DNA from: Schmidtea nova
Taxonomy: Eukaryota
DNA length: 64,000 nucleotides
Direction: 5' to 3'
NCBI GenBank assembly: GCA_044892505.1
Contig: CM097884.1
Location: 125,736,001 to 125,800,000, forward strand
In this document: positions 27,504 through 64,000 of the stretch, one piece after another
How positions within the stretch are numbered: the first letter of the stretch is position 1
Layout of the letters: the number at the start of each line of letters is the position of its first letter
Position numbers and translations under genes: made by a program
The notes under the pieces: generated by a model
What the model was told of the DNA's origin: nothing
Databases searched by the model: none
The model's input: the letters and a program-made list of their open reading frames with translations, nothing else

Positions 27504-27710
27504 AAAAGACTTTAGAATAGTATTAGGAGAGACATGTTGAAGACAATGTCACGGACAATGATTAAAGACTAAATAATTTGTTGAAATTTATTTCCCAAAA
27601 AAAGGTTTGCTTAAAGACTTTTAATAAGCAGTAAAGATGTTAAAACAATTTCATAAATTTCATGTCAAAGAATGAATATTTTTCTCAACGTTAATATTCA
27701 AATTTTCTAG

Positions 27711-29051
27711 TTAATAATCGTCCAAAAGTGCATTTCAATAAAACAATTGGAAAAATGTCAGATTTCCCCGAGAAATTATTTTGCATGAATGAACGACCAG
27801 AAACGACTGAAATAGAGATTGGTAACATTAATGGGAAATCAATTCCACAGGTAAGGAGCACCATTTTATAAATGTTAATTAATGAACACTTCAGGAATGG
27901 ATTGTAAAAAGCAAAAATTCGGTCACCATTATGTTTCCAATAGAGCAAAGTTCTATTTCGGAATATCTTGGAACCTATTACTGTTTCGCAAGGAATAAAT
28001 ACGGAACCGATAACACGACACTGAAAGTCAAAAGTTTTGAATCTCTCAGTATAAATGTCAACTCAACCATCAACAAGATCGACAAAAATCCAGGAAGAGC
28101 TGATTTACTTTCCACTCTTGTAAGAAGTAACCGAAAATTACAAGTGAGCGTCATTGAATTTTAAAGGTTTACCTATCAACTGACACTGATTAGTTGGATT
28201 GTTATGCAACAGGAGAACCAAACGTTCAAATCCAGTGGTATATTTTCACGGAAAAGTACGTTCCAGATGTACCAATACCGGCGAGAAAAATACCCCTAAA
28301 TCCCAATGAAAAATCTCAGAATGTAATTGAAAGAATCACAAACAAACATTATCGCCTGACTCGGGATTATTACTCGCAAGATACTGTCGATTCTTTTCAA
28401 TGCGAGGCGACCTTGAAAGGCAAAACAGTGAGGAAGAACATTAAAATCCAAGGTAAATTCCATTATTTAAACACGCTTCTTCATTGGTTTGGGTAATAGA
28501 AATTAAAGACATTTTCAAAGTAAACTATGAAACTGACAAAGGAAATTCTTTACGTCAACAAGTTTTTGTTGACAAACCATTTCAAGCCTGGTGCAAAATG
28601 GAGAATGACAAGAAGGAGCCTGTTCCGATCAAGAAAGTTGAATGGATATTTAAAGAATCTAATGGCGGTTTGATTCCTCTTCTGAAATTTGCCCAGGTCG
28701 TACGTCCTACAGAAAATAAATTATATTTGTTGAACATTAGCCTAACATTTGGAACTTATGTTCGCAGTCAATGTATTGCCTATTATAATGACTCATATGA
28801 TGTCATTAGTGCTGAGGTTTCTTTGAATTTACAAGGTTTTTTCTCATGATTTTTACTTCATTAACATTTTTAAAATTCCCTTTGTAGAATCACCGAAGAT
28901 CTATTCAATTTATTTCAAACAAAACTCTCCTCAAAAGAAATTGCATATACCAGCGCCTTATAATTTAACGTACGATGCTTTGAAGAAAACTCAAATCGAG
29001 TGTATCGCTAATACTAGCACAAATGCAGTATCAAAAATTACTTGGTTGAAG
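27711..29051 (+). CDS. Host multi-Ig gene, exon cluster 27711-27850, 27895-28143, 28194-28452, 28500-28835, 28888-29051 (Ig domains 5-8)
   Basis: All GT-AG introns of 44-52 bp that preserve the frame. Motifs GTYYCFARNKYG, LDCYATGEPNVQIQWY, FQCEATL, WCKME..VEWIF, SQCIAYY, IECIAN..ITWLK. Confidence 0.88.
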
Positions 29052-30240
29052 GTAAGAATGGATAGCTTTCTATATATTCCACACCAGCGGTTTTCAATAT
29101 CCATAGCGCTGTGATCCCTTGATAACATTTGCCTAGTTGAGGTAACTGAAGTATGCACTAAACCTTGGGCCTTGGGATTGTTCATCACGATTCATATTAA
29201 TCTCTTCATTAAGATTGCCTTCCGGAACTTTTCCTATTTAGCGCGTCTTTATCAGCAAACAACTTACAATCTCCCAATGGCTTGTCTAGTTAAATCTTGT
29301 AAATTTAGTTCATACGCTTATTTACTGTATTTATTTTAAGTTTAATTTTCTCGTGTATGAGAAATATTCGATGATAAAATAAAGCGATTGAGTTTTACAT
29401 CACTCAAATTTCGTTTCCTTCATTTTTAAAGTTTCTTCTCTAACTTCACTATTCAAATTCATTAATACTGTAGACCAATGATTCTCAATCTTGGGTAAGT
29501 GGGCAAGCAGCTACCGGTATNNNNNNNNNNNNNNNNNNNNNNNNNNNNNNNNNNNNNNNNNNNNNNNNNNNNNNNNNNNNNNNNNNNNNNNNNNNNNNNN
29601 NNNNNNNNNNNNNNNNNNNNNNNNNNNNNNNNNNNNNNNNNNNNNNNNNNNNNNNNNNNNNNNNNNNNNNNNNNNNNNNNNNNNNNNNNNNNNNNNNNNN
29701 NNNNNNNNNNNNNNNNNNNNNNNNNNNNNNNNNNNNNNNNNNNNNNNNNNNNNNNNNNNNNNNNNNNNNNNNNNNNNNNNNNNNNNNNNNNNNNNNNNNN
29801 NNNNNNNNNNNNNNNNNNNNNNNNNNNNNNNNNNNNNNNNNNNNNNNNNNNNNNCAAGCATGAAAAAATAAATTATCGTGAAACTCGTGGGAAGATGGAA
29901 AAACTCGAGCAATGAAGGGAACCTGAACCTAAATTAAATCTTTTGAATAGTTTATCAAGAGGCACTTACCGATAATTCAATCAAAAAATACTTTAAAGAG
30001 AGGGAGAATTTAGTATTCTTATAAGTTTGTAGAAGATAGTTTCTTAAGTTATTCGAAAGGTTAGCTACAGATTTTCACTTCAAATCAAATATCTCACATT
30101 GGAAGATCTACCCTTATCGCTGGAAAGTACAGACTGGGTAACAAGTGTTAACGACTTTGTAATTGTGTATTGAAATTAAATAAAAGATTTTGTGTTGCGT
30201 GGCACGAGGAGTTTTTTTACCGACTTAACTATAAAACCCA

Positions 30241-50789: not shown

Positions 50790-51440
50790 TTGTGTTCGCT
50801 AGCGTCTACACCCATCAAAATTATGTTAGCTAGTGTCTACACCCATTAAACACTATGTTAGCTAGCGTTTACTCCCATCAAAAAAAATATTTTATGTACG
50901 TTTAACAAAGATTATTTTCGAAAAATTTTCAATGTTGAAACAACAAAGAAACTAACAAAGAAATTTTTCAAAGATTTTCTATGTCTGTTTAACAAAGACA
51001 TGTTTTGCATTTGCATTGCATTTCCATTACACNNNNNNNNNNNNNNNNNNNNNNNNNNNNNNNNNNNNNNNNNNNNNNNNNNNNNNNNNNNNNNNNNNNN
51101 NNNNNNNNNNNNNNNNNNNNNNNNNNNNNNNNNNNNNNNNNNNNNNNNNNNNNNNNNNNNNNNNGTTAATCGGGCTTGCAATGTCTTTGTTAACTTGCAT
51201 CTACATTGAAATGTCTTTGTTAACTTGTACATGGATTGAATTGTCTTTTTTAATATTGTACATGGATTACATTGTCAAAATTATTATTATTATTGTTATT
51301 ATTTTTACCTTGCATGTATGTCTTTGTTAATTTGACTTGTAGCTGCAATGTCTTTGTTAATTTATCTTGTCTTCTTTGTTAAGTTGCATTGACATTGCAA
51401 TGTATTTGTTAACTTGCATCTGCATTGCAATGTCTTTGAT
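50790..51440. repeat. Minisatellites (about 32-bp TGTTAGCTAG... unit and about 30-bp AATGTCTTTGTTAACTTGCATCTGCATTGC unit)
   Basis: Direct observation; orientation flips across the gap at 51033-51164. Confidence 0.85.
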
Positions 51441-52379
51441 GTAAGTAGAGTAGGGGGAGCGCCCAAGAACAGGAACAGACCCCCTCCCTCCCCCCCAAAA
51501 AAAAATTTTTTTTGTTTAAATGAAGTGAATTTTTAAAAAATTTTTATTTTGTTTAAATTAAGTGAATTTTTAATTTTTAATTTTGTTTAAATGAAGTGAA
51601 TTTTTTAATTTTAATTTTTTGTTTAAATGAAGTCAATTTAATTTATTATTTTGTTTAAATGAAGTCTTTATTTTATTTTTATTTATTTTTATTTATTTTT
51701 ATTTATTTTTATTTTATTTTTATTTATTTTTATTTATTTTTATTTATTTTTAATTTATATTTAATTATTTTAATAATTTATTTTTAATAATTTATTTTAA
51801 TAATTTATTTTAATTTATATTTATTTTAATTAATATTTATTTTTTATTTATTTTAATTAATTAATATTTATTTTTAATTTATTTTTAATAATTTATATTT
51901 ATTTATTTTAATTAATTAATATTTATTTAAATTTATTTTTGGTTCAGTTTGAATAATAATAATAATAATAATAATAAAAACTTAGAAAAATTTTTAAAAT
52001 AATAATANNNNNNNNNNNNNNNNNNNNNNNNNNNNNNNNNNNNNNNNNNNNNNNNNNNNNNNNNNNNNNNNNNNNNNNNNNNNNNNNNNNNNNNNNNNNN
52101 NNNNNNNNNNNNNNNNNNNNNNNNNNNNNNNNNNNNNNNNNNNNNNNNNNNNNNNNNNNNNNNNNNNNNNNNNNNNNNNNNNNNNNNNNNNNNNNNNNNN
52201 NNNNNNNNNNNNNNNNNNNNNNNNNNNNNNNNNNNNNNNNNNNNNNNNNNNNNNNNNNNNNNNNNNNNNNNNNAATAACACTAATATTTCATCACAGTGT
52301 AAATAATACAATAAAATAGTAAATTATTAAGAAAAAACTTTGAAATAAAAATAAAGAACAACTAAATCACAAAACTTTA

Positions 52380-52765
52380 TTATAAATTATAAATGTCGTT
52401 ATAATATGCTTTACGCATTTCTGACATTAAGATATGCACCGAATGATCTCTTTTAAAATCATGACAGCATGCACATCCGTTTACGCAGGATACTCTCAGT
52501 GAGTCTTCGCAAACAATGCAATTTTCAATGCACTTGACTCCAGCTCCTAGCACCATATCGTAATGAATCTCGAGCAATTGTTCGATATTGATCCCAGTAA
52601 GTTTGTATATCTTATGAACCAATAACTCTGGCGCACAGTAATCCAATGAATCTTTTATTTTTGGATATAATTCTTGAATTTTCTTCAGGACCACTTCAAA
52701 TAAATAAGCTATATTAAAAATATTAATAATACAGTTAATTAAAAATAATACTTACTTTTAGACAT
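52380..52765 (-). CDS. Polinton spliced Cys/His-rich protein (exons 52765-52756 and 52708-52380)
   Basis: ATG TCT AAA A|GTAAG...ATAG|CT joins in frame (47-bp intron). C-terminal cluster CIENCIVC..CVNGCACCH..H. Confidence 0.65.
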
Positions 52766-52800
52766 TTTCAAAAATATGGATTTGTAAAATAACAATGTAT

Positions 52801-53283
52801 TTAAACAAAATTAAATAATAAATCGAGATATTTTTCATCAATTAATTCATTATTAATTAATGAATTAATATAATTTTTAATTTCATTTACTTGATTAAAA
52901 TAATCCAATGTTTTAATTCCTAATATTACAACTTTTCCACTTGAAAAAATATTAATACAAATAGGGTTATAATTTATTAATCTTAAAGCTGGAAATATTT
53001 CGGGTTCGTACCAGCACTCTGTTTTATTTTGCAATTCGTATAAATTTATGGATTTACCCATATCCAATGTTATAGTGATCGATTGAATTTTTAAATCTGA
53101 AATTTTATATTTCAAATCATCTGGTTTTAACGGTTGCTTACAACCCATTACACGACATTTTCCCGATCTGAAAAATAAAATAGGGTACTTTCCACTCCTA
53201 TCTATAACTTGCTGGGGTTTCCCAACAGGAAATAACATGTTTGGAACTAAACACTTGCCCATATAATTAATATTACTTATCAT
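52801..53283 (-). CDS. Polinton-encoded divergent TATA-binding-protein (TBP)-like protein, about 160 aa
   Basis: Both TBP repeats are visible: ILFFRSGKCRVMGCK, LKIQSIT, YEPEIFPAL and INIFSSGKVVILGIK versus TBP ALIFSSGKMVCTGAK, FKIQNMV, YEPELFPGL and LIFVSGKVVLTGAK. Confidence 0.85.
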   Translation of the reverse strand: MISNINYMGKCLVPNMLFPVGKPQQVIDRSGKYPILFFRSGKCRVMGCKQPLKPDDLKYKISDLKIQSITITLDMGKSINLYELQNKTECWYEPEIFPALRLINYNPICINIFSSGKVVILGIKTLDYFNQVNEIKNYINSLINNELIDEKYLDLLFNFV

Positions 53284-53339
53284 TTTTATAAATTGAATAA
53301 ATATAAACAATATTAAATTAATTAATTAATTAATTAAAA

Positions 53340-53963
53340 ATGGAATTAAGAAATGATGCAGTTTATCAAATAGTGGGCCCAAGTGGTAGTGGAAAAACAT
53401 TATTTGTATGTAAATTGTTGCAATCAAAAATGTTTAAATCAAAATTCAATAAAATTTACTGGCATCGGGGAGCTGATGAAGAACATGGACTGACTCAAGA
53501 TCAATTCTGCAAATTAAAAATGACAATTATAAAAGGGTTTGATAAAAACTGGTCATCTAGATTACGACAAGGCGATGTTATAATTATCGATGATTTGTAC
53601 CAAGAAGCAAATAAAGAAAAAGATTTTAATAATTTATTCACAAAAATTAGTAGACATTTAGGAGTTACTGTAATTTTCATTACTCAAAATTTATTTCATC
53701 AAGGTGGTAGTCACAGAACTCGTAATCTAAATGTTCAATACTTGGTTATATTCAAAAACCCAAGAGATGCTACAATTATTGATTTTCTAGCAAGACAAGC
53801 TTACCCTAATGATAGGAAATTCTTAATTAATTCATTTCAAGATGCTACTAAAGTTCCTCATGGATATTTATTCTTTGATTTTACTCAACAATGTCCTGAT
53901 GATTTACGTATCCGAACGGATATATTTAACGAAAATGGAGTCACGGTTTATAAACAAAATTGA
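53340..53963 (+). CDS. A32/FtsK-like genome-packaging ATPase
   Basis: Walker A GPSGSGKT, Walker B IIIDD, SRH motif, ITQNLF. Confidence 0.95.
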   Translation: MELRNDAVYQIVGPSGSGKTLFVCKLLQSKMFKSKFNKIYWHRGADEEHGLTQDQFCKLKMTIIKGFDKNWSSRLRQGDVIIIDDLYQEANKEKDFNNLFTKISRHLGVTVIFITQNLFHQGGSHRTRNLNVQYLVIFKNPRDATIIDFLARQAYPNDRKFLINSFQDATKVPHGYLFFDFTQQCPDDLRIRTDIFNENGVTVYKQN

Positions 53964-53984
53964 AAATAAATAAAAGAAATAATA

Positions 53985-54170
53985 ATGTCATTTAAAAAAG
54001 TAATTGACAAGTTAAATAAAGAAGCTATTCAAAAAGCTGATCAAAAACTACTTAAAAAAGTTGATCAAAAACTTCTTAAAAAAGTTGATCGAAAATCTAA
54101 ATTAGTTAAAAAAGTTACCAAAAAGATTGGTAAAAGAAAGAAACAAGTAAAGAAGTGGATAAAATTATAA
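53985..54170 (+). CDS. Small Lys-rich protein, possible DNA-condensing core protein
   Basis: 61 aa, very basic, with KKVDQKLL repeats, in tight gene spacing. Confidence 0.6.
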   Translation: MSFKKVIDKLNKEAIQKADQKLLKKVDQKLLKKVDRKSKLVKKVTKKIGKRKKQVKKWIKL

Positions 54171-54200
54171 GCGAAATAAATATACACAAAAATTTTAATC

Positions 54201-54530
54201 ATGAAATTTGAACGTAGTTTACCGTATTTTAATGCTTTGGTTAAAGCTCCAACAAATAAGCGAATGATAATTTTACAAGCTTTCCCACCCTTTGTTATTG
54301 ATGATTTACTTGAAATCGTTTTTAATATTGTTCATGGTAATGTAAATATTAGTAGATCAAAGAAAATTGAACTACAAAAACATAAAAATTCGCTTTTATC
54401 ATTAGTGAATACCAAAAATAGAAATCTTATGCGAAAAATAATATATAAACAAAAGGGTGGGTTTCTCGGTACATTAATTCCAATAGTATTATCAGCAATA
54501 AGCGCAATCTCATCTTTAAGAAATGGGTAA
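54201..54530 (+). CDS. Conserved Polinton protein with a C-terminal amphipathic (cupiennin-like) peptide
   Basis: EIVFNIVHGNV...QKGG|FLGTLIPIVLSAISAISSLRNG. Confidence 0.8.
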   Translation: MKFERSLPYFNALVKAPTNKRMIILQAFPPFVIDDLLEIVFNIVHGNVNISRSKKIELQKHKNSLLSLVNTKNRNLMRKIIYKQKGGFLGTLIPIVLSAISAISSLRNG

Positions 54531-54592
54531 TAAAATGTCTGAACCGAATAAACATAATATAGATTTAAATATTCTAACAAATTGTTGTATTA

Positions 54593-55678
54593 ATGAAGAA
54601 AATCATGAAGAATATAAAAACGATATGGACAAACCCAAAAGATCCCGATGGTTTTGGTTCAGTCAAAAAATTGGCAAAAAGAATAAAAAGTTCAAAGAAT
54701 GAAACTCAGAAATGGTTATCTGATCAATTGGCATATAGTTTAAATAAACCAATGTTGAAAAGATTTCCTACACGCAAATATAAAACTTTTGGGGGTAACG
54801 ATTTATGGCAAATGGATTTGATGGAAATGATTCCTTATTCTAAAATTAACAAGGGTTACAAATATATTTTGACTTGTATTGATGTTTTTAGCCGTTATGC
54901 ACGAGCTATTCCAACAAAAACTAAATCTGCTAATGAAATGGCTGAGGCTATTGAATCTTTATTTAAAGATGGGAAGCCACGTAATTTACAAACTGATTTG
55001 GGTAAGAAATTAAATTTTTAAAAATTAATTAATTTTAATTTAGGAAAAGAGTTTTATAACAGCAAAGTAAAAGAAGTGATCAAAGGAATCAATCATTATT
55101 CTGTATTTTCTCAATTCAAAGCTGCTCATGTTGAAAGATTTAATAGAACTTTAAGAGATCGTTTGAAAAAGTATTTTGTGTATCAAGGTAACAAAACGTG
55201 GATAAATGTTTTACCGAAAATTATTTCCAGTTACAATCGATCACCGCATTCGGGATTAAATAGAATGAAACCTGTCGATGTATATTCAAATAATAATTTT
55301 GACGGATGGATAAAAGATAGATTAAAATCAATTAATAAAAAACCGAAATATAAAGTAGGCGATTATGTGAGAATGAGTAAAATCAGTGCTTCTCCCTTCA
55401 TCAAAAATTTTGATAGTAATTGGAGTGATGAAGTATATCAAATCTCAAATGTTGATACTAATCAAAATCCTGTCATGTATACTATTTCCGATCATGAAAA
55501 CAATGTAATCGAGGGTAAATTCTACGAACAAGAACTTCAAGTTATTCCAGCTCCCACAGTTTTTAGAATTCAAAAGATTTTAAAAACCAAAACTGATGGG
55601 AAATATAAACAATATTACGTTAAATGGCATGGCTATGAAACTCCAAGTTGGATATCTGAAAAACAATTGATTAAATAA
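54593..55678 (+). CDS. int: Polinton retroviral-type integrase with C-terminal chromodomain; spliced (intron 55002-55043)
   Basis: WQMDL, CIDVFSRY, LQTDLG|KEFYN restored by splicing, VERFNRTL, YYVKWHGY..SWI. Confidence 0.93.
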
Positions 55679-55683
55679 ATATT

Positions 55684-56721
55684 ATGAAAGAAAACCAGTT
55701 TTATATGATTTTGCCTAGCAATGCATGTCCTCTTATTTATCCTAATAATGAAGCTAGTAATTTTAATGTAGAATTTCAAAATCCGATTTATTTAAATAGT
55801 AATGACGATTGGGAAGTTGCTTTGATTGATTTTACTTTTGTGTATAATTTGTTCCCGTATTATAGTAATTCTTTTATTCAAATTGAAACTAAAAGAGAAA
55901 TTCAAGAAATTAGTTATTTGAGAATTAATAATCAAAATAAAACAATTCAAGTTATAGTTTCTCAACCTAGTTCAGACACTGATGTATTTATTGAAAAATA
56001 TAATTATTTAGTGATTGTTTGCCCACATGTTCCATTTAAAATTACATTTCCAGATCTTGAACATGCAAAAAGTTTTGGATTGGAAAATATATCAATTACA
56101 AGTGAAAATGACCATTGTCGTTTAAAATTACCAAAATTCACGAATGATAATAGTCTTGAACAATTTGGAATTTTAATAAATTATGACATTAAAACTGTTA
56201 ATGATTATTATTTTCAAGATGAATTATTCATAACGTCATTACCGGAATTGCAAGGATATTTAATGAAAATTAATCCATCTCCATTTAAAGAATTGAAACT
56301 TGTCAATAATGAATTGGTTAAAATTATTCTTCAGGATAATATTTCAAAAATTACTTTTGATTCAAATTTAACCAAATCTCTGGGTCTACAGAAACAAACA
56401 TATACTGATACAGAAATAATTGGTGTAAAAATCCCCAAAATTTTACAACTTCATCAGCAAATGTTCATTTACAGCAACATTATTGAACCAGTAACTGTTG
56501 GAGATGTACGAGTTCCCCTCCTTAAATCAATTTGGATCAAGAAATATGACCAAGGCGAAGTTGTACAAATTGAAATAAAGAATCCAATGTATTTGCCGAT
56601 TTCAACATCAACTATAAACAACATTGAAATCAATATTCGTGATGACAGTGGAAAATTAATTAAATTTTCAAAAGATACAAAGACTCATTTGACTCTACAT
56701 TTTCGTAAAATAAATGAATAA
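55684..56721 (+). CDS. Minor capsid protein (penton/PX)
   Basis: FYMILPSNA...WEVAL at the N-terminus; FIYSNIIEP..VGDVRVPLL...INIRDDSG...LHFRK at the C-terminus. Confidence 0.88.
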   Translation: MKENQFYMILPSNACPLIYPNNEASNFNVEFQNPIYLNSNDDWEVALIDFTFVYNLFPYYSNSFIQIETKREIQEISYLRINNQNKTIQVIVSQPSSDTDVFIEKYNYLVIVCPHVPFKITFPDLEHAKSFGLENISITSENDHCRLKLPKFTNDNSLEQFGILINYDIKTVNDYYFQDELFITSLPELQGYLMKINPSPFKELKLVNNELVKIILQDNISKITFDSNLTKSLGLQKQTYTDTEIIGVKIPKILQLHQQMFIYSNIIEPVTVGDVRVPLLKSIWIKKYDQGEVVQIEIKNPMYLPISTSTINNIEINIRDDSGKLIKFSKDTKTHLTLHFRKINE

Positions 56722-57121
56722 TCCAGATATTATCAGTTTCTATAGCAACAGCCAATCAGGTGGAGAATTACCGTATTTTGTAGGTAAACAATATGGAACT
56801 GGTTGGTTGAAAACGATAGGTAGATTTGCATTACCAATTCTAAGACGTATTGGAAATTTTGGTATGAAAACTGCCAATGACGTGTTAAATAATAATTCAA
56901 AGATTTTACCTGCACTAAAATCCAATGCTATTTCTGAAATTAAAGACTCATTGCCCGATGTGATTCATCATTTGCCACAAGTAATTAGTAAAGTGACTGA
57001 TGTGTTTAACGAAAATAAAACTGAAAATAAACAAAATGGCGGAATTCTTAAACGAAAAAGAAATATGAAGAAACATATAAACAAAAGAATGAAAGGATAT
57101 GGAACAATTTTTGAAAAATGA
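56714..57121 (+). CDS. Conserved Polinton virion accessory protein (PZ-like) with an amphipathic helix
   Basis: FYSNSQSGGELPYFVGKQYGTG-WLKTIGRFALPILRRIG; lies between the penton and hexon genes. Confidence 0.75.
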   Translation: MNNPDIISFYSNSQSGGELPYFVGKQYGTGWLKTIGRFALPILRRIGNFGMKTANDVLNNNSKILPALKSNAISEIKDSLPDVIHHLPQVISKVTDVFNENKTENKQNGGILKRKRNMKKHINKRMKGYGTIFEK

Positions 57122-58344
57122 TTAGTGCAAAATCTGAATTATGTCTTTTTGATAGACCATCTCCACAAGCAGTAATTGAACATGGTGCATTTGAAGATAT
57201 TTACCCAACAAATTCAATTACAGATGCTGGGACATCATCTATTCAATTTTACATCAATGGATCTCAAACTGAATATTTAGATTTGAACGATACTTTACTA
57301 TCTCTTCAGGTCAAAGTTGTAAACAAATCGGGTGAAAATTTAGGATTGGATGCTGATGTTACTCCCAACAATTTCTTTTTCCAAACTCTTTTTAAAGAAG
57401 CCGAATTAATTTTCAATTCTACTAAAGTTGAAGGGGGAAATGATACATTTACACACAAAGCCATGATTGAAACTATTCTCAACTACAATAGTGATACAAA
57501 ACACACATCTTTAACTCCAATGGGATACAATGACCATGATCTTACTAGAAAAGCATGGATTGCAAAATCAAAACCATTTTCAATTTGTTCTCCATTACAT
57601 TTCGATTTCATGGAACAACCCAAGTATTTATTACCAGGTGTTAGTGTTCAAATTAAATTGACGAGATCAAATTCATCCAATAGTTTAACATGTACAAAAA
57701 TTGAGCCTATAATTGAATTATTAGAGGCAAAATTAATGGTTAGAAGAGTTCGAGTAGAACCATCAGTTTATGCTGGTCATCAAATTGGACTTGGTACAAG
57801 AAATGCAATTTATCCAATAAGAAATAAGGAAGTTGTAGAATTTTCATTGCCAATGGGTTCTTCTTCATTTTATAAGGAACAAATCTTTGGAGATAGACGA
57901 TTACCAAACTTTATTCTTGTAGCATTTCAAGGAAATAAAAAACATAGTGGTTCTTTTACTGAAACTTATTCTATTTACGATCATTTTAATGTCAAATCAT
58001 TAACTTTATCGAAAGGAAGTGATTATCGTGAAAAATATTCTCAAGATTTTGAAAATGATATTTGTAGTACTAGTTATATGCAATCTATTGTCCGTAACCT
58101 TGGTTACCTGAATAAGAGTATGAATTGCGGTATTACTTTATCAGATTGGAAAAGCAAATATCCTTTTTTCACCTTCGTTTTGGCTCCAGATTTTGACCTA
58201 AATCAAAGTCAATTACCTCAACAAGGTAATCTAAGACTTGATATTAAATTTGGTACACCATTGACTGAATCAGTTTCTGTAATTGTATATGGAGTTTTTG
58301 AAAAGGAATTACAAATTACAGCTAATCGAACAATACTGGTTTGA
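57118..58344 (+). CDS. Major capsid protein (double jelly-roll, hexon/PY)
   Basis: KSELCLF..P.PQ..IE, IQFYI.G..EYLDL..T.L, QPKYLLPGV...IKLTR, FDL..., GNLRLDIKF. 408 aa, intact. Confidence 0.93.
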   Translation: MISAKSELCLFDRPSPQAVIEHGAFEDIYPTNSITDAGTSSIQFYINGSQTEYLDLNDTLLSLQVKVVNKSGENLGLDADVTPNNFFFQTLFKEAELIFNSTKVEGGNDTFTHKAMIETILNYNSDTKHTSLTPMGYNDHDLTRKAWIAKSKPFSICSPLHFDFMEQPKYLLPGVSVQIKLTRSNSSNSLTCTKIEPIIELLEAKLMVRRVRVEPSVYAGHQIGLGTRNAIYPIRNKEVVEFSLPMGSSSFYKEQIFGDRRLPNFILVAFQGNKKHSGSFTETYSIYDHFNVKSLTLSKGSDYREKYSQDFENDICSTSYMQSIVRNLGYLNKSMNCGITLSDWKSKYPFFTFVLAPDFDLNQSQLPQQGNLRLDIKFGTPLTESVSVIVYGVFEKELQITANRTILV

Positions 58345-58385
58345 TTAAATGGTTATAAACTAATTTGACAAAAATTTATCATCAA

Positions 58386-58764
58386 ATGAAGTAAGATTTA
58401 TTTTTAATAATTAAATTTTATTGATTTTAGTTCAATTCAGGTAGATCAGATTGCTAGAAAATTGATTGGATCGGAATTTCTAGGAGTTTTTCCTCTAGAT
58501 AAAATACCGTATATAGATGTGAATAAAGCATTGATTGTCAATACTCAATCATCAAACCTCAAAGGTGAACATTGGCTTGCAATTTATAATAAACCCGATA
58601 AAATATACGTGTTTGATCCAATGGGATTTTATTATCCACCGATATTATTGAAAAAATTATCGTCAATGTTAAAACCAATAGAATATAACAGAATTCGATA
58701 TCAAAATCCAATGACAAAAACCTGTGGGCAACATTGTTTAGCTTGGCTAAAATATATGAAATAA
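58386..58764 (+). CDS. Adenain-like cysteine protease; spliced (intron 58391-58430)
   Basis: ATG AA|GTAAG...TTAG|T gives MNSIQVDQI...FLGVFPLD, with GEHW, FDPMG and QNPMTKTCGQHC catalytic motifs. Confidence 0.92.
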
Positions 58765-59115
58765 AATTTTTATTATAAAACGACTTTTATTATAAAACGA
58801 CTTTTTCTATTTATGGAATTTTTATGTTTGAATTTGTTAAATTATAGTTGAAAATAATATTGTAAAAATATTTAATTAATTTTAATATTGTAAAAATATT
58901 TAATTAATTACATATTGTAAAATATTTAATTTTAAATTACATTAATTTAAAATATTTAATTAAATTACATTAATTTAAAATATTTAATTAAATTACATTA
59001 ATTTAAAAATAATTTCGTTTAAATAAACGACATTTTTAACAACACGCAAACTTAAGTAAGTAAGTTTAATTTTTTATGAATATTTATTAATTTTTCTTTT
59101 CAGATTTTTGAAATA

Positions 59116-59361
59116 ATGCCAATGAAATTTATATCAAATAATATTATGAAAAAGGAAATTATACCAAGCAATATTATGACAAAGGAGATTATACCAAGCA
59201 ATATTATGACAATGACAAAGGAAATTATACCAAGCAATATTATGACAAAGGAGATTATACCAAGCAATATTATGACAATGACAAAGAAATTATACCAAGC
59301 AATATTATGACAATGACAAAGAAAATTATACCAAGAAATATTATGACAACGAAACTTAAAT
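59116..59361 (+). other. Exon-like tandem repeat encoding (KEIIPSNIMT[MT])n, with one frameshift
   Basis: 30/36-bp units between the acceptor at 59102-59103 and donor GTAAG at 59362. Confidence 0.4.
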
Positions 59362-59439
59362 GTAAGTATTTATATATTGATGAAACTATTATTATCAATT
59401 AGATTTTTTATATAATTAATAGATTTTTATAAGAATTTA

Positions 59440-59700
59440 ATTAATTTTTATAATAAATATATTTTTACATTTTATGAACTTAATTAATTTTTATAATAAA
59501 TATATTTTTACATTTTATGAACTTAATTAATTTTTATAATAAATATATTTTTACATTTTATGAACTTAATTAATTTTTATAATAAATATATTTTTACATT
59601 ATATGATTTTAATTAATTTTTATAATAAATATATTTTTACATTTTATGAATTTAATTAATTTTTATAATAAATATATTTTATAAATTTATATATTTTAAA
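59440..59700. repeat. About 45-bp almost pure-AT tandem array; shorter AT array at 58860-59010
   Basis: TTAATTAATTTTTATAATAAATATATTTTTACATTTTATGAAC repeated 5-6 times. Confidence 0.85.
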
Positions 59701-59763
59701 ATATATTTAATGTAAAAATCAATTATTAAAAATAAATAAAGAACAAATAAATTAAACAAGAGT

Positions 59764-60292
59764 TTATTCATGAAAATCAGTAATTTTCCATATAGGCTTT
59801 ATCACGTTTTCTGTTTGTTTAAATCCTTGTAAGATAATTTGAATTTGATACATTGAATTATCATCTAATTTGCCTAAATCTGTTTCTTTTTTGCAGTTCA
59901 TATATGTGAATTCCTCGTTGAATTGAATATCTTTATTTATTAGCATTAAAATTTCAGATAGATTCTTTCTATCAGTTTCCCCGATTTTTCCAACCTGAAT
60001 ATTGAATTGACATTGTTTCAATGTAACAGGTTCCTGTAAATAATATTAATTAGATTTTAATAATTTTTAATTAATTACTTTAAATGAATATTTGATTGGA
60101 TATTTCAAATACTCCATCGAGTATTGCATGAATTGAACTGGTGAATTCAATGCCAAATTAGATGAAGAAATAGGATTTTCCTCAAGTATAATCTTCATTA
60201 TTTCTTGTTTTGTCATTCTTTTCGATTCTAGAAAAAATAAATTAAAAAATAATCATTTAAAATTAATTAATCTTACTTTTCAGTTGATACAT
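59764..60292 (-). CDS. Three-exon Polinton protein (144 aa), putative OB-fold ssDNA-binding protein
   Basis: Exons 60292-60277, 60227-60079 and 60033-59764 splice in frame (49- and 45-bp GT-AG introns). C-terminus YQIQIILQGF...IKPIWKI. Confidence 0.65.
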
Positions 60293-60601
60293 TTTTTAAT
60301 GATTATTTTAATTTTATAAGTCGTTTATATAGTAATTTTTAAATTATTTTGACCAATCATAATCAATAAATATATATTACGATATTTTGAATGTGTGTAT
60401 ACACACTTGATATACATCATTGTTATTTTATCATAATTTTTATCATAATATTTTTATCATAATTTTTATCATAATATTTTTATCATAATTTTTTATCATT
60501 ATTTTGATCATTATTTTTTTATATTATTTTTAAAATTTATAGGCAATTTATATCAAAAATATTGCAACTCCACAATTCATGATGTAAAATGCCATGAAAA
60601 A

Positions 60602-63600
60602 ATGGAAAAATATTATGCATACCCTCATAACTGTAAAACCTACTACATTTGTCCTTTTTGCAAATCTACTTCGTCCTCTTCGTATATTGACTTTTACAAT
60701 ACTCATTGCGATCATTTAGATCAATTTAAAACATCTAAAAAATCAATTTTTAAATTACCGATTAAAAGAAAATGTAATGTAAATAGTCCAATCCCAATCA
60801 AAATTAACAAGTCAGTTCTTTCTGATGATATTTCTTCAGTTGTTCCTCCAATTGTTCTTTCTGATGATATTTCTTCGATTGTTCCTTCAGATATAGTTGT
60901 AATTTCTGATGATGATGATGATAATGATACCATTCCTGTTGATAACATTCTTGATAATGATACCATTCCTGTTGATAACATTCTTGATACCATTCTTGAT
61001 AATGATATCATTCCTGATAACATTCTTGATTTAAATAATCTTTCTGATTTTGTGGTTGTAGACTCTTTTGATCCTATCGATAATATTCAAATTGGTGGTT
61101 CTTTTGATAAAATTTCTGACGAAAAATACTCTTTAGTTCCTGAAGTACAGGTTGGTGGCTCCATTTTACCTGTTGTTAAATTTGATTTAAATAAATCACA
61201 TGCTATAGTGAAAATGATTGTAACTAACTTTAATTTAAAAAGCATGTTTGTACCTGATAATTTAATTAATAAATTAAATAATGTAATTGAAACCATGGGA
61301 ACGGTTAAAATTCAATTTTGCATCGAAGTTGAGTTTGAAAAAGATGGTGCTTTTCAAACTATAGTTATTTCTAACTCTGCAAAACCTGTCACAGATACCT
61401 TTATAGACGATGGCATTAATATTCTTAATGAAAAAATTACATTAATTAATAATAGAGGCAGTAACTGGATAATTAATAAAATTAATGAAATTCATTTCAT
61501 CTTAACCAAATTTTCTGAGATAAGTAGGTTGATAGGTTACGGTGGTATTGACACTCCTGAATCTTTAAAGTCAAAACATTGTGTTGTAAATGTTCAGAAT
61601 TCTGATGACTTGTGCTTTATCTATTCTGTTTTAGTAATTATTAAATATGATGAGATATCTGGCCGTAAAAATAAACATAGGATCAGTAATTACAATCTTT
61701 CTGATGTTAACTTTAGTCCTTCTGATTTGCCTATGCGTCTTTGCAATATCCCAAAGTTTGAAGCTAAAAACCCGGGATATGCGATTAATGTACTTTCATA
61801 TGATGAATCTGGAATTCTAGACACTAAGCCTGAAGTTTTCAAACATCCGTGTATTGACATAATTCATAGATCGAAAGTAGTAGACGGAATTCCTATTAAC
61901 TTGATTCTTTTACAAAATGGTGACTCTTTTCATTATATAGCAGTAACCAATCTTGATAGGCTTTTAAATCTTGACAATAAATCGATATCTGGTACTCGTA
62001 TTCAAAGTATATGGTGCCATCGATGCTTAAATGGGTTTAGATATCAAGATTCATTTGAACGTCATCAAGAGTTGTGTTCTAAAAATCAATTAGGCACAAC
62101 TCTATATACTTTGCCTAAAAATCCTTATTTGACATTTAGTAATTGGGGCAAAACAATTACTCCACCTTTTGTTGTTTACGCCGATTTTGAGGCAATCTTA
62201 CCTACTGATGATAAGTACTTTCAAAGACATGTCCCAATATCTGCCGGTCTTTTACTTGTAAATAATTTCACTGGAGAAAAGATTTACAGGAGTTTCTTGG
62301 GTCTTGATTGCGTTACTAATTTTCTTGCTGAAATTAATAATATAGGTGAAGAAATTGTTTTTCCTTTTTATAAAAACAATTACAAAAAACCACTTATTAT
62401 GACATTTGAAAATAAAATATTTTTTGCCTCATCTACAAATTGTTATCTTTGTAAAAATCGTTTAGTTAATCCGGTTAGAGACCATGATCACTACACTGGT
62501 GAATATTTGGGAGCTGCTTGCTTAAAATGTAATCTTACTAGACAGATTCGTAAGGAACTACCGGTTGTGTTTCATAATTTAAAAGGGTATGACATGCACC
62601 ATATTCTTAAATATGGATTGGCAAACTTTTCAAATTGGAAAATCTCATGTATTCCAACTACGAGTGAAAAATTCTTAACTTTATCTGCAAGAGTCGGTGA
62701 TTTAACAATTAAATTCATCGATTCTTGTCAATTTATTAACTCCAGTTTAAATGATGCGGTTAAAACATTGACTTCATTACCTTTGACTAGATCTGAATTC
62801 ACCGGGACTATTGTTGACTGTAAGGGTATTTTTCCTTATGATTTTGCAACATCGTTAGAAGTCTTGAATGAAACATATGAATTACCACCAATCTGGGAGG
62901 GTGTTAAGCAGGCTGAATACGACAAGGCATTAGTTATTTGGAGGGAAACTAATTGTCAAACTCTTTGTGACTATATGATGATATACTTAAAACTTGACGT
63001 CTTTCTTCTTGCTGACTTTTTCCAACAGTTTAGAGCCAAGTCAATTTCTCATAATAGGTTAGAACCGTTGAATTTCTTGGGTATTCCAGGTATGTCGTGG
63101 GCTTCTGCGCTTCTTACCTTGGAAGAACCTATTGAGTTGCTCCAGGATATGGAGATGTATAATTTTTTCGAAGGGGGGGATCCGTGATGGTTTGACATTT
63201 GTCAACAAGCATCACGTAGTATCCTCCGAAACGACTGAACTACTTTACATCGACATTAATAATTTGTACGGTTGGGCCTTAAGCCAAAAATTACCTTGTG
63301 GTAAATTTAAATGGATTAATGATGAGAAAAAATTAAATAAATTAATTAATTTGATGGATGCTGACTTGGAACTTTTAACAATCGGTGTAACATTTGAAGT
63401 TGACTTGGTAATCCCAGTTGAAATTCACGATAAATTAAATGACTTTCCGGTTGCAGCAGAGAAAATGTGTGCTCCCAATTCTAAAGTTGAGAAGTTAATG
63501 TTAACACATTATCCAAAGTTCAACTATGTTGTTCATTGGAGGCTTTTAAAATTATTTGTTTTCTTTGGATGTTAAAATAACACGAGTTCATCGGGCTGTT

Positions 63601-64000
63601 CAGTACAAACAGAAACCCATCTTTAAAAAATATATTGATACGAACACTGAACTTAGGGCAGCTTCATCGTTTGTTTTAGATAAAAACTATTACAAACTTT
63701 TAAATAATAGTCTTTATGGAAAAACTGTCGAAAATCTTAAGAAAAGACTCAATTTACGACTTTGTAATTCAGCATCAAAACTGATTACATATACATCAAA
63801 ACCTACCTTTAGAAAAACTTATAGGATTGATGATGATCTAATTTCTGTCTTGCTTAATAAGGACTCTGTGTGTTTAGATAGACCCAGCTACATTGGCCAA
63901 AGTGTACTGGATTTATCTAAACTTAGAATGTATCAACTCCAGTATGAAGAATTGCAAAAATATCGCAATGAATTCAACTGTGAGATTAATATAGTTGCAG
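60602..64000 (+). CDS. polB: Protein-primed family B DNA polymerase with N-terminal terminal-protein region; two +1 homopolymer frameshifts; runs off the window
   Basis: Exo motifs VYADFE, FHNLKGYD and YLKLDV; endonuclease-VII-like insert CYLC...RDHDHYTG...CLKCN; DINNLYGWA; KLLNNSLYGKT. Frameshifts at G7 near 63173-63179 and the T-run near 63560. Confidence 0.95.

Follow-up and report, generated by a model that had tools for sequence, protein, structure and literature searches.

Vertebrate and nematode Mavericks (Polintons) are described in the accessible text of PMC8097293 and of bioRxiv 10.1101/2022.07.12.499685, respectively, as elements whose core genes are intronless, and in the nematode elements introns were reported only in captured cargo genes. 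In the accessible part of the vertebrate study an element had to have frames free of introns to be scored as intact, PMC10120064 states outright that such elements have no introns and bioRxiv 10.1101/2025.04.19.649669 disregards introns by design. Introns are known in related systems, as far as the accessible portions of the following papers go. The spliceosomal-type introns of integrated dinoflagellate Maverick-Polinton-like elements (PMC11957031) are introners, repeated mobile sequences that were mostly inserted after integration. Ginger1 DNA transposons (PMC2836005) have a related DDE integrase/transposase with one to four canonical introns, some of which are kept between families, but they are single-gene cut-and-paste elements without capsid, protease or polymerase. 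Cryptophyte Polinton-like viruses (PMC12220804) likewise have introns within their genomes, but these are self-splicing group I introns, 309-376 bp long and located in a small gene that precedes the capsid gene, and are not spliceosomal.

The window (the whole 64,000-nucleotide stretch of DNA that was analysed) holds GT-AG inserts inside a virus-like Polinton (Maverick) transposon of very high abundance, whose termini are intact and which is flanked by a 6-bp target duplication (Table 1). Compared with the accessible text of PMC8097293 and bioRxiv 10.1101/2022.07.12.499685, this element shares with animal Mavericks the core gene set, AG-type termini, the 6-bp target duplication, a length of 14-17 kb and the gene order, namely integrase, minor capsid, PW-position gene, major capsid and protease; ATPase and PZ; and polymerase. 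It differs from the vertebrate and nematode elements in carrying introns within the integrase and protease genes themselves, in having a TBP-like gene and, in family A, in having two minor-capsid-like genes. Unlike the dinoflagellate introners, the inserts are non-repetitive, clade-fixed and position-conserved, and they reside in an animal element. A literature search, with Repbase, supplements and most subscription papers outside its scope, returned no report of conserved spliceosomal introns in a Polinton integrase or protease. Judging from the sequences, position-conserved introns in these two genes are likely to run counter to the common assumption of intronless Polinton core genes.

The element and its gene map

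The element is a recently mobile, very high-copy Polinton. Its termini read AGTAGA...TCTACT with long imperfect inverted repeats, and AG...CT terminal inverted repeats together with 6-bp target duplications were observed in all six full-length copies. In each of the five full-length copies other than that in the window, all five coding introns are present. The integrase is of the rve type with a chromodomain (Pfam rve above and Chromo below cut-off; 505 homologues), the family B polymerase is of the protein-primed type as judged by a match of its C-terminal frame to Pfam DNA_pol_B_2 (E 2e-7), and both the packaging ATPase and the adenain-type cysteine protease score above cut-off with Pox_A32 and Peptidase_C5. 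A double jelly-roll fold was found for the major capsid protein on a predicted model (pLDDT 72.5), which matched an iridovirus capsid (Foldseek E 4e-14) as well as the PBCV-1 and mavirus capsids, with a TM of about 0.6. The name PZ was taken from the gene order in the accessible text of PMC8097293.

The window copy itself is defective. Its polymerase gene is broken, while a single open frame of 1,172-1,362 codons was observed in five of five other copies. Introns or programmed frameshifts were ruled out as the source of these breaks because the five other copies are continuous. For the products of the accessory genes g1 and g3 there was no Pfam match, Atlas scores stayed below 0.9 and one homologue search was empty; a model of a g3 homologue had a pLDDT of 47 and a best Z of 3.6. 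The idea of an OB-fold found no support.

Table 1. Positions of the element, its genes and the candidate introns in the window
Feature	Position	Strand	Remarks
Target-site duplication GATGTA, left copy	51438..51443	+	identical six letters after the right end, 1.8 kb past the window (L031)
Polinton/Maverick element, family A	51444..64000	.	14,336 bp in total, continues into L031
g1 exon 2	52380..52708	-	no Pfam match
g1 intron	52709..52755	-	47 nt, phase 1
g1 (accessory, Cys-rich) exon 1	52756..52765	-	ATG, three codons plus one base
TBP-like gene	52801..53283	-	Pfam TBP, E 9.5e-17; no intron seen; head to head with ATPase gene
Packaging ATPase (A32-like)	53340..53963	+	Pfam Pox_A32, E 1e-6
PZ-position gene (adenovirus protein X-like motif)	54201..54530	+	Pfam Adeno_PX, E 1.2e-5
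Integrase exon 1 (rve core)	54593..55001	+	Pfam rve, E 1.9e-9
Integrase intron	55002..55043	+	42 nt, phase 1, in-frame stop
Integrase exon 2 (rest of core, chromodomain)	55044..55678	+	Pfam rve_3 and Chromo, both below curated cut-off
Probable minor capsid gene	55684..56721	+	from position and size only, no Pfam match; no intron seen
Major capsid protein	57118..58344	+	predicted double jelly-roll; no intron seen
Protease exon 1	58386..58390	+	ATG plus two bases
Protease intron	58391..58430	+	40 nt, codon 2, phase 2
Protease exon 2 (adenain type)	58431..58764	+	Pfam Peptidase_C5, E 1.9e-5
Candidate intron	59056..59103	+	48 nt; probably 5' untranslated leader of repeat-rich frame; weaker
Further candidate GT..AG interval	59362..59402	+	41 nt, after repeat frame; weak; fails strict scan
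g3 (accessory) exon 3	59764..60033	-	aligns with unbroken homologues in L149, L099
g3 intron 2	60034..60078	-	45 nt, phase 0, in-frame stop
g3 exon 2	60079..60227	-	
g3 intron 1	60228..60276	-	49 nt, codon 6, phase 1
g3 exon 1	60277..60292	-	divergent families have a comparable 16-nt exon with ATG
Family B DNA polymerase gene	60449..64000	+	broken into three frames in window copy; no intron seen

GT-AG intervals and reading frames

An earlier note on this DNA had listed six GT-AG intervals, and the letters of the window bear this out: all six start with GT(AA), end with (T/C)AG and have an A+T content of 85-93%, with the consensus donor and T-rich acceptor of U2-type spliceosomal introns. When both strands of the 12.3-kb element body were scanned under strict settings, eight donor starts on six acceptors were obtained, which are exactly these intervals, and no intron was placed in the capsid, ATPase and polymerase genes. 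Shuffled element bodies gave a mean of 1.87 donors (maximum 7) against the eight observed, and GTAAG donors numbered six against a mean of 0.1 and a maximum of 1 in 200 block shuffles; this control flatters the introns because the scan thresholds were chosen after the introns were known. GTAAG was found as the donor in all 33 distinct protease variants and in 22 of 25 integrase variants, sets that were partly selected by pattern. YTRAY-like words, candidate branch-point motifs of a kind that is common in A+T-rich DNA, are located 9-20 nt from each acceptor. The note had also likened the intervals in size to the short introns of the host Ig gene. This holds, as four GT..AG intervals identified by eye in that gene measure 44, 50, 47 and 52 nt, but the Polinton introns have 7-15% G+C compared with 23-36% in these four.

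The claim that each interval restores the frame was found to hold in part. Five of them interrupt coding genes, three within the first six codons as the note had stated (codon 4 in g1, codon 2 in the protease and codon 6 in g3). The integrase insert splits a Gly codon behind the second catalytic Asp motif, and its removal restores the motif as proposed; no insert was observed at this junction in 113 of 116 motif-bearing homologues (120 examined). Removal of the protease insert likewise restores the MNSIQ start, and the natural homologue P0123 begins MNSVQ. However, g3 intron 1 is dispensable for the frame because a separate ATG lies four codons into exon 2, and the sixth, weaker candidate at 59056-59103 has no ATG-bearing exon closely upstream. 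The repeat-rich frame downstream of this candidate varies among copies, and the interval was found in three of ten other copies when searched by its upstream motif. The further interval that follows the repeat frame was absent from the earlier list and is present too in copies c2, c4 and L143.

Conservation, spread and age

Among families that are 60-78% identical in protein, intron position and splice ends were observed to be fixed while the interiors are at shuffle-level identity. The interiors are 59-80% identical to those of the window, compared with shuffle means of 68-69% (95th percentile 77-78%), and no conserved motif above shuffle level was found in them. Lengths vary between 37 and 48 nt and fall in all three frames, yet the ends stay GT and AG. 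This combination of a conserved position and phase with a diverged interior was found for the integrase, protease and g1 introns and for g3 intron 2, and is weaker for g3 intron 1. Intronless natural homologues read straight across the integrase and g3 junctions. In pairwise comparisons of the six window introns, three of 15 pairs scored above mononucleotide shuffles (p <= 0.01) and the other 12 at or near chance.

All 30 near-identical loci examined, including that of the window, carry the integrase intron. The pattern of this intron has 9,581 matches genome-wide (control 0) against 164 for the intronless junction, so that 9,581 of 9,745 counted junctions (98%) carry the intron. Nearly all of the first 100 intronless junctions listed belong to family B, which has near-identical copies with open frames, and five odd intronless loci that were fetched are decayed, divergent copies too broken for the tree. 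If the intron is retained, 24 of 25 distinct variants run into a stop or shift frame; the L117 copy has a 42-nt insert without a stop. On the integrase tree a single change is seen, and it falls on the branch that leads to the genome's dominant clade (SH-aLRT 96 and 99). Both trees are quick searches with midpoint rooting, where change counts alone cannot separate gain from loss, and most of the protein database stems from gene calling that ignores introns, which biases it towards intronless outgroups.

For the protease intron there were 11,036 pattern matches genome-wide (control 148). It was found in all 14 genome rows fetched without selection for the intron and in 50 of 50 rows overall, a count that is partly circular because the intron pattern had served to select 40 of the 77 loci. 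Retention breaks 33 of 33 distinct variants by a stop or frameshift. Of 41 matches to an intronless start, 24 were inspected for precise intron loss or retroprocessing and none lies at a protease gene. The intron is also common to three of seven metagenome relatives at 49-54% protein identity. Among IMG/VR viral contigs no relatives of integrase exon 2 or of the capsid were found, and the protease gave eight weak matches (22-23%).

In g1, the first exon ahead of the intron contains an ATG across families and differs in length among them, and the exon-edge AG with an upstream GTA was observed in 33 of 37 homologous rows, with four failing. Intron 1 of g3 is canonical in seven of 12 rows and has a variant donor or shifted acceptor in five. 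Intron 2 of g3 (3,229 matches genome-wide, control 0) is present in 12 of 13 rows, the remaining one being the intronless homologue L149. Among the joints in contigs of unrecorded kind from four runs, none of the 15 listed, with 222 more beyond the listing, has GT..AG ends; these joints concern the left 7.1 kb of the element, with the g3 introns outside, and have no bearing on expression.

The introns differ in age and reflect several gains, because the protease intron also occurs in the metagenome relatives, and this intron is older than that of the integrase. The lineage-specific gain suggested earlier therefore stands for the integrase and g3 introns but not for the protease intron. Comparison of intron positions across copies, which the earlier note had called for, shows them fixed in mobile, target-duplicated copies, and the five coding inserts are very likely spliceosomal introns rather than post-insertion indels.

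Probable constitutive splicing and its rivals

The explanation we favour, with good confidence, is that the element inherits these A+T-rich inserts and that the host spliceosome removes them as ordinary constitutive introns; splicing itself is likely on the sequence evidence. Transcription of the integrated element would take place in the nucleus by host RNA polymerase II, and the Polinton introns would be spliced like the host's own 44-52 nt introns. The element replicates as DNA by means of its polymerase and integrase, and since no reverse transcription is involved nothing strips the introns and each gain is passed on. The gains appear to be layered: the protease intron is the oldest, the g1 intron is found in most families of the genome, the integrase intron originated a single time, at a G|GTAA proto-splice site on the stem of the dominant clade, and the g3 introns are confined to a subclade. 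As likely spliceosomal introns in mobile copies, they would make splicing a requirement for the integrase and protease, in agreement with the earlier proposal that integration and maturation depend on splicing, but as a housekeeping step and not a switch.

That proposal went on to a regulatory switch, where germline- or stage-specific splicing would control integration and virion maturation. The third intron of the P element is an example of such splicing, retention would inactivate nearly all integrase and all protease variants, and the two enzymes have introns whereas the capsid genes have none. However, a stop upon retention is expected for any A+T-rich intron, the interiors show no motif above shuffle level, and the consensus-type donors and host-typical lengths fit constitutive splicing; we therefore consider a switch improbable. 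It is rather unlikely that the spliced introns serve the element beyond housekeeping, by boosting expression or by host-like marking against silencing, with the integrase intron having aided the expansion of its clade. The early location of three of the five coding introns, the near-universal integrase intron and the persistence of the protease intron over about 50% protein divergence would agree with such a role, and HUSH silences intronless mobile elements in human cells (accessible text of PMC8770142). Nevertheless, a single gain on a single branch cannot tie the intron to the expansion, family B has near-identical open-frame copies with an intronless integrase, the capsid, ATPase and polymerase genes lack introns in the scan, and an element that replicates as DNA retains introns even without benefit.

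An invasion of the element by an introner, an intron-generating transposon, has a precedent in the dinoflagellate elements (accessible text of PMC11957031), and the three intron pairs above shuffle level could point the same way. The other 12 pairs are at chance level or close to it, and these positives are plausibly shared A/T runs. The introns are moreover of different ages and fixed throughout whole clades, with no copy-to-copy variation, which makes this origin quite unlikely; since old introners may have decayed past recognition, the question is one of origin alone. The defective state of the window copy would suit intervals that are never spliced, either GT..AG pairs that arose by chance or A+T-rich indels of dead copies. 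This we regard as extremely improbable, since position and ends are identical across divergent families and thousands of copies, the introns also occur in copies whose polymerase frame is intact and which have target duplications, and a stop in the integrase core would have prevented the spread of the dominant clade unless the rare family B had complemented it.

Spliced introns in this Polinton would mean that host machinery transcribes the element in the nucleus. Surveys of endogenous DNA viruses rest on the premise of no introns, and mobile elements that carry them would be called broken or be given wrong N-termini. The introns would also provide an uncommon case of a mapped intron gain: a sister family without the intron is found in the same genome, and copies by the thousand lie on either side of older gains. 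Further, and doubtfully, this branch of the animal Polintoviruses may be a spliced, nucleus-adapted lineage that gains adaptive introns stepwise in its core enzymes, with a possible role in expression, in escape from the silencing of intronless DNA or in gating of the integrase, and the integrase intron may have helped one clade to reach about 10,000 copies. If this is true, intron-blind virus surveys would systematically miss or miscall such elements, and the lineage would make a dated, high-copy system in which intron gain could be followed.

The Polinton element and its GT-AG intervals

The region is a Polinton on the basis of its Pfam gene set (A32-like ATPase, rve integrase with a chromodomain, adenain protease and family B polymerase) together with a capsid whose predicted fold is a double jelly-roll. 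Five other full-length copies (15.1-16.6 kb) are each flanked by a 6-bp target duplication of their own. Among 1,779 candidate matches for the integrase region, 40 were scored and all 40 are 99-100% identical. In the window copy a second minor-capsid-like gene, present in all five of these copies, is missing and the polymerase, continuous in 5/5 other copies, is broken over three frames; the window copy is either defective or affected by assembly errors. Most families, and metagenome relatives as well (L098, L099 and L104), also have a TBP-like gene head to head with the ATPase; a shared A+T-rich TATA-like word lies in the interval that separates the pair. For adinto-like viruses from hosts other than animals, TBP appears in a figure legend (PMC8502044).

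The six intervals proposed as introns by the earlier note each start with GT and end with AG exactly where it had placed them, and all are 85-93% A+T. A strict splice-site scan of the 12.3-kb element body on both strands returned eight donor starts that pair with six acceptors and mark out exactly the six intervals. Donors in 200 local shuffles averaged 1.87 (maximum 7) and GTAAG donors, of which six were observed, averaged 0.1 (maximum 1); the thresholds were chosen with the introns already in view and this control is therefore generous. The similarity in size to host Ig-gene introns was also borne out, with four host intervals placed by eye measuring 44, 50, 47 and 52 nt; these are higher in G+C than the Polinton introns. 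Intron 1 of the accessory gene g3 is backed by a conserved 16-nt first exon, with the caveats that an ATG also stands in exon 2 and that the donor varies. The interval in no assigned gene has good splice signals but lacks a coding exon upstream and is a weaker candidate; the tandem-repeat frame 3' of it differs between copies.

Features of the window and of related loci
Feature	Coordinates	Remark
Polinton element	51444 to 1.8 kb beyond window	14,336 bp; ends AGTAGA...TCTACT; target duplication GATGTA
g1 intron	52709-52755	accessory gene
Integrase intron	55002-55043
Protease intron	58391-58430
g3 intron 2	60034-60078	accessory gene
g3 intron 1	60228-60276
Weaker candidate	59056-59103
Further GT..AG candidate	59362-59402	41 nt; after tandem-repeat frame
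TBP-like gene	52801-53283 (-)	head to head with ATPase
59-codon frame	54523-54702 (+)	Met-Gly start; overlaps integrase start; similar frame 5' of integrase in L099
Region of missing minor-capsid-like gene	56431-56721
Broken polymerase	63072-63575 area
Host Ig-domain exons	27695-29114 (+)	by eye; introns 44-52 nt; partly in duplicated blocks, amid Gypsy-like and other retroelements (by eye)
Repeats	2568-2867/16793-17092
Integrase intron variant, L117	near 2610-2651	42 nt; no in-frame stop; retention would insert 14 residues beside catalytic Asp
Ubiquitin-conjugating (E2) gene, L099	222-722 (-)	metagenome Polinton relative; Pfam UQ_con, E 1.7e-12
g3-like inverted pair, L083	5362-7275	adjoins neither protease nor polymerase gene

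Conservation of the inserts among copies and families

The inserts belong to the mobile element itself. Active copies without them, which the earlier note had set against its own reading, were not found: the integrase insert is present in 30/30 near-identical loci and all five coding introns in each of the five other copies. Genome-wide, with the reversed pattern as control, the protease-intron pattern gave 11,036 matches (control 148), the integrase-intron pattern 9,581 (control 0) and the g3 intron 2 pattern 3,229 (control 0). Polintons would make up as much as ~13% of the 1.25 Gb assembly if every one of the ~11,000 protease or ~9,600 integrase matches were a 15-kb element, which is not the case for many, and they are frequently nested within each other.

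The inserts evolve as introns do. Families of this genome that have diverged to protein identities of ~72-80% (integrase), 60-67% (protease) and 28-51% (g1) carry them at the identical codon and phase, while interior identity to the window introns is 59-80% between families, close to that of shuffles (means 68-69%, 95th percentile 77-78%). Lengths are 37-48 nt, in all three frames. Splice ends were counted in 77 loci anchored on exon 2 by tblastn. For the protease, 50/50 rows show AG at the exon edge, with GTA 35-56 nt 5' of it, a set partly selected in that 40 loci were chosen by intron pattern; the intron is present in 14/14 rows not so chosen. Of the 59 integrase rows, 39 are canonical, 2 have GTT donors, 1 is decayed and 17 are intronless, most of the last chosen for being so. 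The g1 intron passes in 33/37 rows, g3 intron 2 in 12/13 and g3 intron 1 in 7/12. Natural homologues that lack the insert align collinearly at the integrase Asp motif (113/116), at the protease start (P0123) and over the g3 junction (L149 and L099). Three database protease homologues (P0122, P0124 and P0125) have a MISSIQ start or a long odd N-terminus, as expected if an intron-blind caller had read into the protease intron.

Age and origin of the introns

Querying with a natural homologue that has no intron exposed a second Polinton family of the same genome, family B, whose integrase is unbroken. The intronless junction pattern gave 164 matches (1.7% of counted junctions), and the integrase intron is absent in 20/20 metagenome loci covering the junction (22 loci in the set). 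In an exon 2 tree of 106 rows, the 35 intron-bearing rows lie on one side of one branch (SH-aLRT 96); L116 and L145 are among the integrase rows that carry the intron. A 75-row tree without 11 long-branch rows and without database proteins beyond P0027 gave one change with support 99. We infer a gain because all outer rows lack the intron, under a midpoint root and with database proteins biased towards intronless genes. The site in intronless relatives is mostly TT(A/G)GG(T/A)AA, and in several families with the intron both it and exon 2 begin with GTAA, sequences that would fit insertion at a proto-splice site.

The protease intron predates that of the integrase. It is also present in family B and in 3/7 protease-bearing metagenome loci (L099, L100 and L107; two distinct elements, 49-54% identity); in L104, L106, L112 and L113, which are more distant, the ATG stands directly in frame. 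The g3 introns are confined to family A, that of the window copy, and near kin. The lineage-specific gain proposed in the earlier note fits the integrase and g3 introns but not that of the protease, and there were several gains of different age.

In family B loci (L077-L079, L080-L081 and L082-L084), two ATPase-to-capsid modules often stand in inverted orientation, ~7 kb apart and flanking a single protease. No polymerase belonging to the family was seen in the stretch, and the arrangement may be a non-autonomous fold-back derivative. Close inverted pairs of a g3-like gene carrying both introns, with a spacing of 1.3-2.6 kb, are also found in many places genome-wide, which suggests a small separate element.

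Probable splicing and the intronless rule of Polintons

The most likely course is nuclear transcription of the integrated element, followed by constitutive removal of the introns by the host spliceosome. The life cycle runs from DNA to DNA, with no reverse-transcription step to purge introns, so that each gain is kept. Retention leads to a stop or frameshift in 33/33 protease and 24/25 integrase variants, and these enzymes would indeed depend on splicing as had been proposed. The possible regulatory switch of that proposal is not supported: donors are of consensus type, interiors have no conserved signal and nothing points to regulation. The introns may have an adaptive role, through 5'-proximal enhancement or escape from silencing.

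Intact vertebrate Mavericks are reported to be without introns (PMC8097293, citing Kapitonov and Jurka 2006), nematode Mavericks have them in cargo and not in core genes (10.1101/2022.07.12.499685) and endogenous viruses of the Polinton kind are stated to contain none (PMC10120064); other papers describe introners in dinoflagellate elements (PMC11957031), Ginger transposases with introns (PMC2836005) and group I introns in cryptophyte elements (PMC12220804). Conserved introns of Polinton integrase or protease were not found in a literature search with subscription papers and Repbase outside its scope, nor reported in passages of PMC10748475, PMC6431247, PMC11296320, PMC5718144, PMC8502044, PMC11410931, 10.64898/2026.07.28.741278, 10.64898/2025.12.11.693146 and 10.1101/2025.04.19.649669. 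The S. nova Polinton departs from the intronless rule of its family in two core enzymes, integrase and protease, and its intron gains are layered and mappable.
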